From positions 352,001 through 416,000 of the forward strand of contig BK006941.2 of NCBI GenBank assembly GCA_000146045.2: 64,000 bases of DNA, read 5' to 3'. Position numbers and translations under genes: made by a program. The number at the start of each line of letters is the position of its first letter. Within the stretch, counting starts at the first letter, position 1. The notes under the pieces are model-generated. The model was not told the origin of the DNA and did no database searches. It worked only from the letters and a program-made list of their open reading frames with translations. The stretch is from TPA_inf: Saccharomyces (taxonomy: Eukaryota). Shown in pieces: positions 5,377 to 36,100 of this stretch.

Positions 5377-6339
5377 ATGGGTGATATAAGAACTTTTGTT
5401 TTCGCTATAGAAGATACGGAAACAACACAAGGTTTGTGTAAAACCATTGGCCGTTCGAGTTCATTTGATCAAAATAGTCTATGTAAGCCGTACAATCTAT
5501 ATTTTGATGAGCCAGAACTAAGCAGACAGCATGCTGTCCTATGTATAAAGACACCAATACCCAAAATTGAAGGAGTTCCCTCTATAGAACAACTCCGCAT
5601 CTGCATTCGGGATTTGAATAACAAGACTGGTACAGTAAACTTAGTGTCTGATGGGCCAAATGATGAAATTGATTTGAAAAATGGTGATGCTTTTGGTTTG
5701 ATTGCAATTGATAATCATCCTTTTCGCGACAACCATCATTTAGCCGCCAAGTTAATTTTCCGAATTGAACTTGAGTATTTCGATGAAGCAAGGGAAATCG
5801 TAAAGTGCACTATTACAAATGTAACATTTGGAAAGAATAATACAGTGTCATCTTTCCCTATTCATTCTGCAACATCCACAGAAGATAGCGATTCAAGTTG
5901 GTACGGATTGTCGGAAGCGAGTACGCAAACGGAAGTTGCAGATGAGTGTCATGAAACGAACACCATATTGACTCGAGGTGGTAGGTTTTCTATCCTTTCG
6001 TTGAGAAAAAGAGGCAGCAAGCAAGACCAGAAGATCTGCAGTAACTTTGATAGAAAAATACATGAAACGAGTTCTTTCGAAGAAGAAATCGAAGTTTGCA
6101 CTGACACAGACACCACAGAAGAAAAAGAAGAAGAAGAAGAAAAAGAAGAAGGGGATGATGAGGAAGGAGAAATAGAACTTGAAATTATTAGAGTAAAAAG
6201 AATAAAGGGCAGGACGAAGATAAAGAAGACGCTTACTTGCTTCTCGAAAAACAAGAAAATTATTACCCCTCAGCACTCCAATAGTATGTGGTTACTACTA
6301 ATAGTAATCTTGATTTTTGACCGCCTACTATCGAATTAA
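5377..6339 (+). CDS. YGL081W: Protein of unknown function, 320 aa, with an acidic poly-Glu stretch (YGL081W).
   Basis: The track ORF starts at a TTG at 5347. The first ATG is at 5377, which gives 320 aa as in YGL081W. It encodes an internal EEKEEEEEKEEGDDEEGE tract from a (GAA)n run. Confidence 0.7.
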   Translation: MGDIRTFVFAIEDTETTQGLCKTIGRSSSFDQNSLCKPYNLYFDEPELSRQHAVLCIKTPIPKIEGVPSIEQLRICIRDLNNKTGTVNLVSDGPNDEIDLKNGDAFGLIAIDNHPFRDNHHLAAKLIFRIELEYFDEAREIVKCTITNVTFGKNNTVSSFPIHSATSTEDSDSSWYGLSEASTQTEVADECHETNTILTRGGRFSILSLRKRGSKQDQKICSNFDRKIHETSSFEEEIEVCTDTDTTEEKEEEEEKEEGDDEEGEIELEIIRVKRIKGRTKIKKTLTCFSKNKKIITPQHSNSMWLLLIVILIFDRLLSN

Positions 6340-31653: not shown

Positions 31654-32766
31654 ATGCTCTTAGGTTACTGTGGCAGCGGATACTATGGAATGCAATACAA
31701 CCCACCACACAAGACGATTGAAGGTGAGATTCTCACCAAGCTCTTCGACGTAGGAGCCATTTCCGAAGAAAATTCATTGGCACCGAAGAAAAATTCCTTT
31801 ATGGCAGCGGCAAGAACAGACAAGGGTGTACACGCTATGTTGAATCTACTGTCGCTAAAGATCACATTGCGAGAGGACACAGTAGCGAAGTTAAACGCCG
31901 CACTACCGCCCGAAATACGCGTGTGGGGTATCCAGCCTGTCAATAAAAAGTTTAATGCTAGATCCGCGTGCGATTCTCGATGGTACCAATACCTTATCCC
32001 AGAATTTATACTCATTGGTCCACCCCGGAGTTCTCTTTTGCATCGAAACGTGGGGGGATGCTACCGCGAAGACGGCTCGCAAGAGGTGTGGGATACGTTC
32101 CTGGAACAGACGCGTGGGAGATTTAGCGGGGATGAGCTGTGCCGTTTGCAGGACACTGCACAGAAACTAAGCGAGAGCGATCCTTTGGTACAAGACTACG
32201 TGGGGCTATTGAGCGGTACCCTTAGCGGCTACTGCTTGTCGCCCTCGAAGCTGGACGCGTTTGAGGCAGCCATGCAGGAGTACGTGGGAACGCATAATTT
32301 TCACAACTTTACCACAGGAAAGCTTTGGGGGGATCCTAGTGCTCAGCGCCATATCAAAAAGGTTGTAGTGTCGCAGGCCTCACCGGGATGGATATGTGTG
32401 CGGATCCACGGGCAGTCGTTTATGTTGCATCAGATTCGACGAATGGTAGCGCTTGCCGTACTTGCAGCCCGTTGCCAATTGCCGCCTAATATTGTACGTA
32501 ACTATTTTAACGCCGGGCCTAGGAAATACATTCCGAGGGCGCCCGCACAAGGCCTATTATTAGAGGGACCTGTGTTTGACGGGTATAACACTAAGTTGCG
32601 CAATTTGCTGTATTGCGAAATCCGCCCGGACGATATCACTCTTGAGCGCATGTGCCGTTTCCGAGAACGCCAGATCTGTACTGCGATCGCACACGAGGAG
32701 ACACAGCGTCACGTGTTTTGCCATTTTGTACGACAAATGAACCGCCTGGCCACGCCTCTAATCTAG
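31654..32766 (+). CDS. PUS2: tRNA pseudouridine synthase (TruA/Pus1 family), 370 aa.
   Basis: 370-aa ORF. It has the TruA-family catalytic aspartate context (AARTDKGVHA). Its GC content is noticeably higher than that of its neighbours. Confidence 0.9.
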   Translation: MLLGYCGSGYYGMQYNPPHKTIEGEILTKLFDVGAISEENSLAPKKNSFMAAARTDKGVHAMLNLLSLKITLREDTVAKLNAALPPEIRVWGIQPVNKKFNARSACDSRWYQYLIPEFILIGPPRSSLLHRNVGGCYREDGSQEVWDTFLEQTRGRFSGDELCRLQDTAQKLSESDPLVQDYVGLLSGTLSGYCLSPSKLDAFEAAMQEYVGTHNFHNFTTGKLWGDPSAQRHIKKVVVSQASPGWICVRIHGQSFMLHQIRRMVALAVLAARCQLPPNIVRNYFNAGPRKYIPRAPAQGLLLEGPVFDGYNTKLRNLLYCEIRPDDITLERMCRFRERQICTAIAHEETQRHVFCHFVRQMNRLATPLI

Positions 32767-32804
32767 CCGCCCAATGTCGCGGGTTGACCCGCGACATTGG
32801 GCGG
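32767..32804. repeat. Perfect 17-bp inverted repeat CCGCCCAATGTCGCGGG / TTGA loop / CCCGCGACATTGGGCGG. It starts 1 nt after the PUS2 stop and lies about 390 bp upstream of the PYC1 ATG.
   Basis: Read directly from the sequence. The arms carry two inverted CCAAT boxes and a central CGG-N6-CCG. Confidence 0.9.
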
Positions 32805-33195
32805 GCAATACTCTCATCTTATTGGCTATTCAACTTAGACAAGCGCCAGTTGCGCGCACAAATTTGGTCATGACCGCTCCACCGGCATGCGTGTCGTCAT
32901 CCCGCATCATTCGGGACATTTTGGCCTTTTCCGCAGTGCGTAGTTGACGTGGGGAGAAAGCTAGTGGGCTGTCGCATATGGTTGGTTTTAGGTGGCGAAA
33001 GTTTCGCCGCGATAGCAATCATGTCCTCGACCTTAATCTCAATGGAATGGGTCATGCTCGGTAAGTGAGTCTCGCTGTATATAAGTATATATGTAATCGC
33101 CTAGTTCGATAGATACAAGGAGGTCTTGAGTATGTAGATAAACGAAAAGAAGATAACAAAAGGAAAATCTCAGCCTCTCCCCTTCCTCTTAGACA

Positions 33196-36100
33196 ATGTC
33201 GCAAAGAAAATTCGCCGGCTTGAGAGATAACTTCAATCTCTTGGGTGAAAAGAACAAAATATTGGTGGCTAATAGAGGAGAAATTCCAATCAGAATTTTT
33301 CGTACCGCTCATGAACTGTCTATGCAGACGGTAGCTATATATTCTCATGAAGATCGTCTTTCAACGCACAAACAAAAGGCTGACGAAGCATACGTCATAG
33401 GTGAAGTAGGCCAATATACCCCCGTCGGCGCTTATTTGGCCATTGACGAAATCATTTCCATTGCCCAAAAACACCAGGTAGATTTCATCCATCCAGGTTA
33501 TGGGTTCTTGTCTGAAAATTCGGAATTTGCCGACAAAGTAGTGAAGGCCGGTATCACTTGGATTGGCCCTCCAGCTGAAGTTATTGACTCCGTGGGTGAT
33601 AAGGTCTCAGCTAGAAACCTGGCAGCAAAAGCTAATGTGCCCACCGTTCCTGGTACACCAGGTCCTATAGAAACTGTAGAGGAAGCACTTGACTTCGTCA
33701 ATGAATACGGCTACCCGGTGATCATTAAGGCCGCCTTTGGTGGTGGTGGTAGAGGTATGAGAGTCGTTAGAGAAGGTGACGACGTGGCAGATGCCTTTCA
33801 ACGTGCTACCTCCGAAGCCCGTACTGCCTTCGGTAATGGTACCTGCTTTGTGGAAAGATTCTTGGACAAGCCAAAGCATATTGAAGTTCAATTGTTGGCC
33901 GATAACCACGGAAACGTGGTTCATCTTTTCGAAAGAGACTGTTCCGTGCAGAGAAGACACCAAAAGGTTGTCGAAGTGGCCCCAGCAAAGACTTTACCCC
34001 GTGAAGTCCGTGACGCCATTTTGACAGATGCAGTTAAATTGGCCAAAGAGTGTGGCTACAGAAATGCGGGTACTGCTGAATTCTTGGTTGATAACCAAAA
34101 TAGACACTATTTCATTGAAATTAATCCAAGAATCCAAGTGGAACATACCATCACAGAAGAAATTACCGGTATAGATATTGTGGCGGCTCAGATCCAAATT
34201 GCGGCAGGTGCCTCTCTACCCCAGCTGGGCCTATTCCAGGACAAAATTACGACTCGTGGCTTTGCCATTCAGTGCCGTATTACCACGGAAGACCCTGCTA
34301 AGAACTTCCAACCAGATACCGGTAGAATAGAAGTGTACCGTTCTGCAGGTGGTAATGGTGTTAGACTGGATGGTGGTAACGCCTATGCAGGAACAATAAT
34401 CTCACCTCATTACGACTCAATGCTGGTCAAATGCTCATGCTCCGGTTCCACCTACGAAATCGTTCGTAGAAAAATGATTCGTGCATTAATCGAGTTCAGA
34501 ATTAGAGGTGTCAAGACCAACATTCCCTTCCTATTGACTCTTTTGACCAATCCAGTATTTATTGAGGGTACATACTGGACGACTTTTATTGACGACACCC
34601 CACAACTGTTCCAAATGGTTTCATCACAAAACAGAGCCCAAAAACTTTTACATTACCTCGCCGACGTGGCAGTCAATGGTTCATCTATCAAGGGTCAAAT
34701 TGGCTTGCCAAAATTAAAATCAAATCCAAGTGTCCCCCATTTGCACGATGCTCAGGGCAATGTCATCAACGTTACAAAGTCTGCACCACCATCCGGATGG
34801 AGGCAAGTGCTACTAGAAAAGGGGCCAGCTGAATTTGCCAGACAAGTTAGACAGTTCAATGGTACTTTATTGATGGACACCACCTGGAGAGACGCTCATC
34901 AATCTCTACTTGCAACAAGAGTCAGAACCCACGATTTGGCTACAATCGCTCCAACAACCGCACATGCCCTTGCAGGTCGTTTCGCCTTAGAATGTTGGGG
35001 TGGTGCCACATTCGATGTTGCAATGAGATTTTTGCATGAGGATCCATGGGAACGTTTGAGAAAATTAAGATCTCTGGTGCCTAATATTCCATTCCAAATG
35101 TTATTGCGTGGTGCCAATGGTGTGGCTTATTCTTCATTGCCTGACAATGCTATTGACCATTTCGTCAAGCAAGCCAAGGATAATGGTGTTGATATATTTA
35201 GAGTCTTTGATGCCTTAAATGACTTGGAACAATTGAAGGTCGGTGTAGATGCTGTGAAGAAGGCAGGTGGTGTTGTAGAAGCCACTGTTTGTTTCTCTGG
35301 GGATATGCTTCAGCCAGGCAAGAAATACAATTTGGATTACTACTTGGAAATTGCTGAAAAAATTGTCCAAATGGGCACTCATATCCTGGGTATCAAAGAT
35401 ATGGCAGGTACCATGAAGCCAGCAGCTGCCAAACTACTGATTGGATCTTTGAGGGCTAAGTACCCTGATCTCCCAATACATGTTCACACTCACGATTCTG
35501 CAGGTACTGCTGTTGCATCAATGACTGCGTGTGCTCTGGCGGGCGCCGATGTCGTTGATGTTGCCATCAACTCAATGTCTGGTTTAACTTCACAACCATC
35601 AATCAATGCTCTGTTGGCTTCATTAGAAGGTAATATTGACACTGGTATTAACGTTGAGCATGTCCGTGAACTAGATGCATATTGGGCAGAGATGAGATTG
35701 TTATACTCTTGTTTCGAGGCTGACTTGAAGGGCCCAGATCCAGAAGTTTATCAACATGAAATCCCAGGTGGTCAATTGACAAACTTGTTGTTTCAAGCCC
35801 AACAATTGGGTCTTGGAGAACAATGGGCCGAAACAAAAAGAGCTTACAGAGAAGCCAATTATTTATTGGGTGATATTGTCAAAGTTACCCCAACTTCGAA
35901 GGTCGTTGGTGATCTGGCACAATTTATGGTCTCCAATAAATTAACTTCCGATGATGTGAGACGCCTGGCTAATTCTTTGGATTTCCCTGACTCTGTTATG
36001 GATTTCTTCGAAGGCTTAATCGGCCAACCATATGGTGGGTTCCCAGAACCATTTAGATCAGACGTTTTAAGGAACAAGAGAAGAAAGTTGACTTGTCGTC

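Follow-up and report, generated by a model that had tools for sequence, protein, structure and literature searches.

What accounts for a perfect 38-bp inverted repeat in a yeast promoter, and does the promoter need its symmetry? The repeat in question lies at positions 32767-32804 of a 64,000-nt stretch of Saccharomyces cerevisiae DNA (contig BK006941.2, positions 352,001 to 416,000), called the window below; all coordinates are positions in this window. It begins at the end of PUS2, a tRNA pseudouridine synthase gene, and stands upstream of PYC1, the pyruvate carboxylase gene. The answer that we favor, with moderate confidence, has two layers: the outer end of the left arm would belong to an upstream repression sequence 1 (URS1) that serves as a Ume6 operator, and the symmetry would be a by-product of template switching.

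A perfect palindrome next to the PUS2 stop codon

The element reads CCGCCCAATGTCGCGGG-TTGA-CCCGCGACATTGGGCGG, with 17-nt arms and a 4-nt center. An earlier note on this DNA had described it as a perfect 17-bp inverted repeat right after the PUS2 stop and upstream of PYC1, and both the sequence itself and a repeat finder confirmed this. The repeat finder returned 18-nt arms (32767-32784 and 32787-32804, 100% complementary) around a 2-nt gap. Because T32784 pairs with A32787, "17 + TTGA" and "18 + TG" are equivalent descriptions. The first base of the palindrome directly follows the stop codon TAG (32764-32766).

This is by far the longest hairpin-type palindrome in the window, the runner-up having 12-nt arms made of A/T runs. 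The note's remark that so long a perfect palindrome is rare by chance was correct: for arms of at least 17 nt and a loop of at most 10 nt, the chance expectation is about 1e-4 per 64 kb, or about 0.02 per 12 Mb. When folded as RNA in a 100-nt context the sequence reached -45.9 kcal/mol (z = -5.8), and the 38-nt DNA hairpin reached -24.2 kcal/mol (z = -8.9); neither value was matched in 200 shuffles. The palindrome is real and non-random. Its G+C content is 71%, and the wider GC-rich block described before is also present (32767-33060, 54% G+C vs 39% for the window). Long yeast palindromes are typically highly AT-rich according to a review, which also describes cruciform-capable repeats as rare, and a GC-rich palindrome is atypical among them. 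A full-text literature search on the PYC1 promoter and on the palindrome sequence gave no match.

We compared the PUS2-PYC1 intergenic region with its orthologs from S. paradoxus (L001, L008 and L011, three lineages), S. mikatae (L002 and L009), S. kudriavzevii (L003 and L010, two strains), S. arboricola (L004), S. uvarum (L005) and S. eubayanus (L006 and L007). The element is conserved in the sister species, but not as a perfect palindrome. S. cerevisiae has perfect arms of 17-18 nt around TTGA, and S. paradoxus has perfect arms of 14-15 nt around a center of 8-10 nt. The arms of S. mikatae (15 nt) are also perfect and are followed by three further pairs, G-T, G-C and G-T. Those of S. arboricola (16 nt, perfect) both carry AACTTCGCG in place of AATGTCGCG, at positions 9-10 relative to S. 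cerevisiae. The S. kudriavzevii repeat is imperfect, with three mismatches (-19.4 kcal/mol). S. uvarum and S. eubayanus retain the left arm and lack the right outer arm; their inner CGCGGG-TAGA-CCCGCG is retained as a 6-bp stem.

A candidate Ume6 site at the outer left end

The PUS2 stop codon and the first 7 nt of the left arm together read TAGCCGCCCA on the plus strand. The minus-strand sequence, TGGGCGGCTA, fits the Ume6 motif WNGGCGGCWW fully, GGCGGC core included, and occurs once in 64 kb against 0.03 expected. We take it to be identical to the URS1 sites described at SPO13 and HOP1. It matches the classical URS1, published as TAGCCGCCGA with the core GGCGGC, at 9 of 10 positions. Across the genome, Ume6/Isw2 and a Chd1-Ume6 fusion act at WNGGCGGCWW and pass over sites in which the core is incomplete.

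Conservation singles out the same site. All seven species (S. cerevisiae, S. paradoxus, S. mikatae, S. kudriavzevii, S. arboricola, S. uvarum and S. eubayanus) share the 16-mer CTAATCTAGCCGCCCA without a change, against a mean column identity of 66% over the intergenic alignment, and the URS1 at the stop codon is the only GGCGGC motif fixed in both position and sequence in all seven, while neighboring GGCGGC motifs turn over. When a metagenome scan was run with the invariant 16-mer, 51 matches were returned, of which just 2 were genuine yeast loci, both identical to the window. In S. paradoxus (L001, L008 and L011) a 1-nt deletion before the PUS2 stop converts CGCCTCTAATC to CGCTCTAATC (L001 2905-2912), and the stop has moved to a TAA 5 nt upstream, giving a protein of 368 aa. 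The old TAG is nevertheless intact within the URS1, which suggests that it is conserved for the URS1 and not just as a stop codon.

The earlier note was not aware that any control had been established here, but published work shows that Ume6 acts directly on PYC1. Harris & Unal (2023, Genetics, Table S1), who combined acute Ume6 depletion with Ume6 chromatin immunoprecipitation sequencing (ChIP-seq), list PYC1 (YGL062W) as a direct target (composite list, Yes). In that table, the log2 fold changes of PYC1 at 15, 30, 60 and 120 min of Ume6 depletion are +1.35, +1.22, +0.86 and +1.01, and the value in ume6-delta is +3.0. Its Ume6 ChIP peak is annotated "Upstream" with a value of 62.7, which is 0.97 times the IME2 peak. 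The same row gives Yes for the MEME motif (URS1), open reading frame (ORF) as mode of regulation and premeiotic/meiotic entry as class. PUS2 rises by just +0.75 on Ume6 loss in the DESeq list (Harris & Unal 2023). A second publication also places PYC1 among the direct Ume6 targets; Raithatha 2021 and Strawbridge 2010 do not mention the PUS2-PYC1 locus. The link between Ume6 and PYC1 is already established in the literature at the level of the gene, and what is new here is its likely site, a 10-mer overlapping the PUS2 stop codon. Judging from motif quality and conservation, TGGGCGGCTA is likely the Ume6 site for PYC1.

Ume6 bound to this URS1 on the minus strand would bring in Sin3-Rpd3 and Isw2 and so keep PYC1 low in vegetative growth, and Ime1 would convert the Ume6 complex to an activator at meiotic entry. 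The known Ume6-bound URS1 sites (IME2, HOP1, CAR1, INO1, ACS1, CAT8) share the WNGGCGGCWW motif and the GGCGGC core, and PYC1 resembles these genes in its upstream ChIP peak, its rapid derepression on depletion and its premeiotic/meiotic entry class. Three things set the PYC1 URS1 apart from them: it shares bases with the PUS2 stop codon, it sits about 430 bp from the ATG, as far out as the promoter reaches, and it is part of a perfect 38-bp palindrome in which the opposite arm holds a decayed mirror copy.

The two features that the earlier note had stressed, twin CCAAT boxes and a CGG-N6-CCG core, are not conserved across the seven species. If the inverted boxes bound the Hap2/3/4/5 (HAP) complex, PYC1 would be under respiratory control. 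Both boxes are there, PYC1 is a carbon-metabolism gene, and Gsm1, a Hap4-dependent factor, is published as an activator of PYC1. The boxes are nevertheless confined to the S. cerevisiae, S. paradoxus and S. mikatae clade: the corresponding sequences are CCCATC and CCAAC in S. kudriavzevii and CCAAC twice in S. arboricola, while S. uvarum and S. eubayanus, which lack the right arm, have CCCAGC. Moreover, the left CCAAT overlaps the invariant URS1, a better-conserved ATTGG stands outside the palindrome (32821-32825), and a literature search found no paper tying HAP to PYC1 through the boxes in the arms. We consider control through these boxes very unlikely.

A Ppr1-type Zn2Cys6 homodimer on the central core strikes us as extremely improbable. 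The core is present in S. cerevisiae, S. uvarum and S. eubayanus, but both lineages of S. paradoxus have lost it, as have S. mikatae, S. kudriavzevii and S. arboricola, and it is the N6 spacer of the palindrome that flips and varies. Ppr1 sites have the context TTCGG...CCGAA, which the flanks of the central core do not match. On the sequences compared, the HAP and Ppr1-type readings both fail on conservation. The broader suggestion of a zinc-cluster protein fares better. Ume6 is itself a Zn2Cys6 protein, and a member of that class very probably does bind here, as Ume6 at the URS1 and not as a Ppr1-type dimer on the core. To our knowledge, the arms fit none of the consensus sequences for Reb1, Abf1, the Gal4, Put3, Leu3 and Hap1 spacings, the carbon source-responsive element (CSRE; Cat8/Sip4), Adr1, Mig1, or the MluI and Swi4/6 cell cycle boxes (MCB/SCB).

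Other URS1-like sequences occur in the region and in the rest of the window. A second WNGGCGGCWW match, TAGGCGGCAA (32479-32488, minus strand), lies inside PUS2, 287 nt before its stop codon. It is present in S. cerevisiae, S. kudriavzevii, S. uvarum and S. eubayanus, is reduced to the core in S. arboricola and is absent from S. paradoxus and S. mikatae. Only S. arboricola, S. uvarum and S. eubayanus have a perfect classical URS1, TCGGCGGCTA, at -544. On this pattern, URS1 sites seem to turn over in the 3' half of PUS2. A further WNGGCGGCWW match, TTGGCGGCTA, lies at 5741-5750 on the minus strand; Table S1 of Tresenrider et al. (2021) gives YGL081W, on this chromosome, an early-meiotic internal transcription start site (TSS), to which the match may be related.

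Proposed copying between the arms and a flipping center

The arms have changed together, by several bases at a time. At arm positions 8-10, S. cerevisiae, S. paradoxus and S. mikatae carry ATG left and right, and S. arboricola carries ACT left and right. The S. kudriavzevii arms are mixed: the left one has TCG, which resembles the GCG of S. uvarum, and the right one shares ACT with S. arboricola. The simplest reading of this pattern would be an imperfect ancestor that was homogenized from right to left in S. arboricola and from left to right in the S. cerevisiae clade.

Compared with their neighbors, S. paradoxus and S. arboricola have the wider center in inverted orientation. S. paradoxus L008 matches S. 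mikatae at 37 of 38 positions when reverse-complemented and at 31 of 38 in the forward direction (11 of 12 vs 5 of 12 for the center alone), and the alignment score of S. arboricola against S. kudriavzevii is 29 reverse-complemented and 19 forward. Given the species tree, these two inversions are independent.

The center is also polymorphic within S. cerevisiae. Among 12 further contigs, all with identical arms, 9 carry TTGA, as the window does, and 3 carry its reverse complement, TCAA. Between one contig of each kind (L069, TTGA; L070, TCAA), the two adjacent center bases are the sole difference over 3763 aligned columns (about 3.76 kb). By simple arithmetic, a random dinucleotide change would hit the center and give the reverse complement with a probability of about 1/3762 x 1/9, or about 3e-5. 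The three TCAA carriers have different haplotype backgrounds, each with variants common to some TTGA strain.

These three patterns, joint change of the arms, inversion of the center between species and a polymorphic center within one, point to copying at the DNA level rather than to selection on each base. Template switching in S. cerevisiae promoters is known to homogenize the arms of inverted repeats, to invert their spacers and, in some cases, to duplicate a transcription factor site (Rozenfeld et al. 2026, Genome Biol Evol). The PYC1 palindrome is like those repeats, and like the quasi-palindromes corrected in the manner described by Ripley and Lovett, in that its arms were made identical by multi-base changes; it also shares the spacer inversion (their TGCAC to GTGCA), the copying of a factor site to the second arm and the promoter-proximal position. 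Neither PYC1 nor PUS2 appears in the main text of Rozenfeld et al. 2026, whose screen retained only loci that are imperfect in S288C, whereas the PYC1 palindrome is perfect in the reference. It differs from their cases in that the pattern is both genus-wide and present within a species, and in holding a deeply conserved site with a documented regulatory output.

In our two-layer reading, the right arm would be an inverted copy of left-arm sequence, and template switching at replication, or hairpin-templated repair, would keep the arms nearly identical and repeatedly invert the center. We infer this process from the sequence patterns. S. cerevisiae would simply happen to have the perfectly homogenized version. 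If the arms are homogenized by copying, the perfect symmetry is mainly a mutational by-product and is not needed for regulation. The shape of the palindrome would then add a new and unusually clear case to a mutational process that was described only lately: homogenization of an inverted repeat and flipping of its spacer in a yeast promoter, seen throughout the genus and still segregating. It also carries a caution for motif reading, since the twin CCAAT boxes and the CGG-N6-CCG core may be by-products of mirror-image copying while the functional site is the inconspicuous outer end.

Two older systems offer comparisons. Small inversions associated with hairpins, classically in chloroplast spacers, arise when a short loop between inverted repeats flips recurrently and independently of phylogeny. 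The PYC1 element flips in the same way, but it is nuclear, lies in a GC-rich promoter and has a loop of 2-10 nt. In the ADH2 promoter, upstream activating sequence 1 (UAS1) is a 22-bp perfect inverted repeat bound by two Adr1 monomers. It resembles the PYC1 element as a perfect palindrome in a yeast carbon-metabolism promoter with two potential mirror sites for a zinc-finger-type factor. Unlike UAS1, the PYC1 element lacks the core motif in its second copy in S. cerevisiae.

The state of the right arm bears on whether both copies matter. The core of its mirror URS1 is GGCGGG in S. cerevisiae and GGCGGT in S. paradoxus; on the alignment, it is broken by two independent substitutions. The arms of S. 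mikatae, S. kudriavzevii and S. arboricola extend one base further out, to the G of the stop codon, so that each contains the full GGCGGC and the right-arm copy, TGGGCGGCCA, has an intact core. By the requirement for a complete core, the right arm does not qualify as a Ume6 site in S. cerevisiae. The ancestral dyad probably had a second, weaker URS1 on the right arm. S. mikatae, S. kudriavzevii and S. arboricola would have kept that copy whole, and it would have decayed in S. cerevisiae and S. paradoxus; S. uvarum and S. eubayanus lack it. The broken core and the missing arm argue that a second site is dispensable.

Several points weigh against the two-layer reading. The published Ume6 ChIP peak is placed in the broad category "Upstream" of PYC1, and the second motif inside PUS2, 285 bp farther upstream, could add to it. 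The URS1 at the stop codon is also remote, about 310 bp from the TATA box and at the ATG-distal limit of the promoter. Among the seven species compared, which include no outgroup, a right arm lost in S. uvarum and S. eubayanus looks the same as one gained elsewhere. Co-variation of the arms was not significant in the 7 sequences (2 pairs with changes on both sides; the score was reached by 122 of 500 shuffles). Within S. cerevisiae, a single flip spread by recombination or gene conversion would leave the same pattern as recurrent flipping. Finally, TCGC and GCG within the arms are invariant in 7 of 7 species, so another reader, perhaps Rsc3/Rsc30 on CGCG, is possible, and if another factor reads the inner arms, part of the symmetry could be functional.

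This last point leads to a functional DNA dyad, read by two proteins and kept symmetrical by selection, which we regard as unlikely but a serious contender. Candidates, to which we give the same limited weight, would be two Ume6 molecules on mirror URS1 sites, or a zinc-cluster dimer (Rsc3/Rsc30, another reader of CGCG or CGG, or Gsm1) on the inner arms. A dyad would be consistent with the arms changing in step, with the full core on both arms in three species, and with the invariant TCGC and GCG; the inner CGCGGG-N4-CCCGCG persists even in S. uvarum and S. eubayanus. The zinc-cluster proteins Rsc3 and Rsc30 are published as dimerizing and binding CGCG, and Gsm1 as binding and activating PYC1; the assignment of these CGCG motifs to Rsc3 is, however, made at the level of the motif. 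A further CGCG motif of the promoter, GCGCGC, lies at 32852-32857. On the other hand, the right URS1 core was broken independently in S. cerevisiae and S. paradoxus, where it would no longer be a Ume6 target, and two species have no right outer arm, while that of S. kudriavzevii has decayed. Identical changes of 2-3 bases on both arms would also be unexpected for a protein site.

The earlier note had also proposed a strong RNA stem-loop at the PUS2 3' end. Such a stem-loop, in the 3' untranslated region (UTR) of PUS2 or in a PUS2-internal meiotic transcript running toward PYC1, could affect termination, stability or translation. The hairpin lies immediately 3' of the stop codon and is very stable (-36.8 kcal/mol when the RNA is folded alone), and the stem would almost certainly form part of any PUS2 3' UTR. 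In S. mikatae, the inner pairs are G-U, G-C and G-U on the plus strand, which folds at -31.9 kcal/mol vs -27.9 kcal/mol for the minus strand. Tresenrider et al. (2021, Table S1) report an early-meiotic TSS inside PUS2, "PUS2 INTERNAL START", at chrVII:385812-385834 in SK1 coordinates. If that start is in the sense direction and near the 3' end of PUS2, the transcript would carry the hairpin in a long leader toward PYC1.

Other observations do not favor an RNA function. The non-significant co-variation applies here too, and no Rfam family was found, the sole Rfam match being a meaningless 9.5-bit hit elsewhere in the window. The hairpin is weak in S. kudriavzevii and shrinks to the 6-bp stem in S. 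uvarum and S. eubayanus, and, read on one strand, an inverted center has A-C where there was G-U. S. paradoxus has its PUS2 stop 5 nt away from the usual place, and read-through of PUS2 would add just 7 codons before an in-frame TGA. The stem-loop thus stands as a thermodynamically strong structure that is very likely transcribed, but as an explanation of the palindrome it seems to us quite unlikely.

We give similarly little credence to the palindrome being an active structural switch and not a passive by-product. Extrusion of a hairpin or cruciform, driven by supercoiling from PUS2 and PYC1 transcription, might gate the access of Ume6 or insulate PYC1, though we doubt it. In an RNA variant, which we find no easier to credit, a hairpin in the PUS2 3' UTR or in the PUS2-internal meiotic transcript would do the gating, or the insulating against PUS2 read-through. 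If the palindrome were such a switch, the recurrent center flips would be the footprint of a structure that truly forms in vivo, and at 71% G+C it may be among very few perfect palindromes in yeast able to do so. The TTGA and TCAA alleles are a natural pair that bears on whether the orientation or structure of the element matters. Interest in the element would grow if the right arm, the symmetry or the orientation of the center affected expression of PYC1 or PUS2.

The surrounding genes and the rest of the promoter

The positions of the genes and of the motifs discussed above are collected in Table 1.

Table 1. Features at the PUS2-PYC1 junction (positions in the window)
Feature	Position	Strand	Remarks
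PUS2, tRNA pseudouridine synthase, 370 aa	31654-32766	+	100% identical to S. cerevisiae entries
URS1, candidate Ume6 site TGGGCGGCTA (plus strand TAGCCGCCCA)	32764-32773	-	Motif match; invariant in 7 species
Perfect palindrome CCGCCCAATGTCGCGGG TTGA CCCGCGACATTGGGCGG	32767-32804		Repeat finding, chance estimate, folding
CCAAT, left arm	32771-32775	+	Overlaps URS1 by 3 nt; not conserved past S. mikatae
TCGCG, left arm, candidate Rsc3/Rsc30 site	32777-32781		TCGC invariant in 7 species; assigned by motif
CGG-N6-CCG core	32780-32791		CGG 32780-32782, CCG 32789-32791; only in S. cerevisiae, S. uvarum and S. eubayanus
Center TTGA	32784-32787		Polymorphic in S. cerevisiae (TTGA/TCAA, reverse complements; bases 32785-32786 change)
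CGCGA, right arm, mirror CGCG motif, candidate Rsc3/Rsc30 site	32790-32794		GCG invariant in 7 species; assigned by motif
CCAAT, right arm (ATTGG on plus strand)	32796-32800	-	Not conserved past S. mikatae
Mirror URS1 copy TGGGCGGGCA	32798-32807	+	GGCGGC core broken in S. cerevisiae
PYC1 TATA box TATATAAG	33078-33085	+	Invariant; 274 bp 3' of palindrome, 118 bp 5' of ATG
PYC1, pyruvate carboxylase, 1178 aa	33196-36732	+	Gene regulated from this promoter; ATG at 33196

The product of PUS2 is a TruA-type pseudouridine synthase, and a DEAD-box helicase gene lies farther upstream. Gene order around PUS2 and PYC1 is kept in the six sister species. PUS2 evolves fast in Saccharomyces, with 72-91% identity to the S. 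cerevisiae protein. Beyond the genus, a PUS2 search returned PUS1-like proteins alone, at about 40-44% identity; a distinct PUS2 and its synteny with PYC1 may be specific to Saccharomyces. The intergenic region is a well-conserved promoter (mean column identity 66%) with several invariant blocks in addition to the invariant TATATAAG.

The second palindrome that the earlier note had pointed out, GGCGAAAgTTTCGCC, is present at 32994-33008. At 15 nt with 7-nt arms it is unremarkable by chance, yet it is conserved in all species. The change to GGCAAAAATTTCGCC in S. uvarum and S. eubayanus is one-sided and breaks a pair, so this palindrome behaves like a protein site and not like a hairpin. An invariant GATAG follows it (about 33011-33015), a possible site for a GATA factor. 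The longest nearly invariant block of the intergenic region is GCGTGTCGTCATCCCGCATCATTCGGGACATTTT (32889-32922), which contains TCCCG-N7-CGGGA and may be the main activating element of PYC1.

Two further CCAAT-type boxes lie near the palindrome. The ATTGG at 32821-32825 (TTATTGGCT) is conserved in the five species that have that stretch. On the right flank, positions 32805-32809 have the full CCAAT in S. mikatae, S. kudriavzevii and S. arboricola; the first base is G in S. cerevisiae (GCAAT) and T in S. paradoxus (TCAAT). Should PYC1 be under HAP control, these two positions would be better candidates than the CCAAT boxes of the arms.

A neighboring GC-rich inverted repeat, TTCAATGCGCGCAA-N7-TTGCGCGCATTGAA, was seen in S. 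paradoxus (L001 2972-3012, orthologous to about 32826-32866). It is near-perfect in L001 (14 perfect bp; 17 nt at 94%). L008 and S. mikatae have a weaker version, and in S. cerevisiae, where the left arm reads CTTAGACAA, it is degenerate. It may be another case in which arm identity was gained or lost by the same template-switch process. Its right arm, TTGCGCGCAC (32850-32859), is conserved in five species and resembles an Rsc3-type CGCG site.

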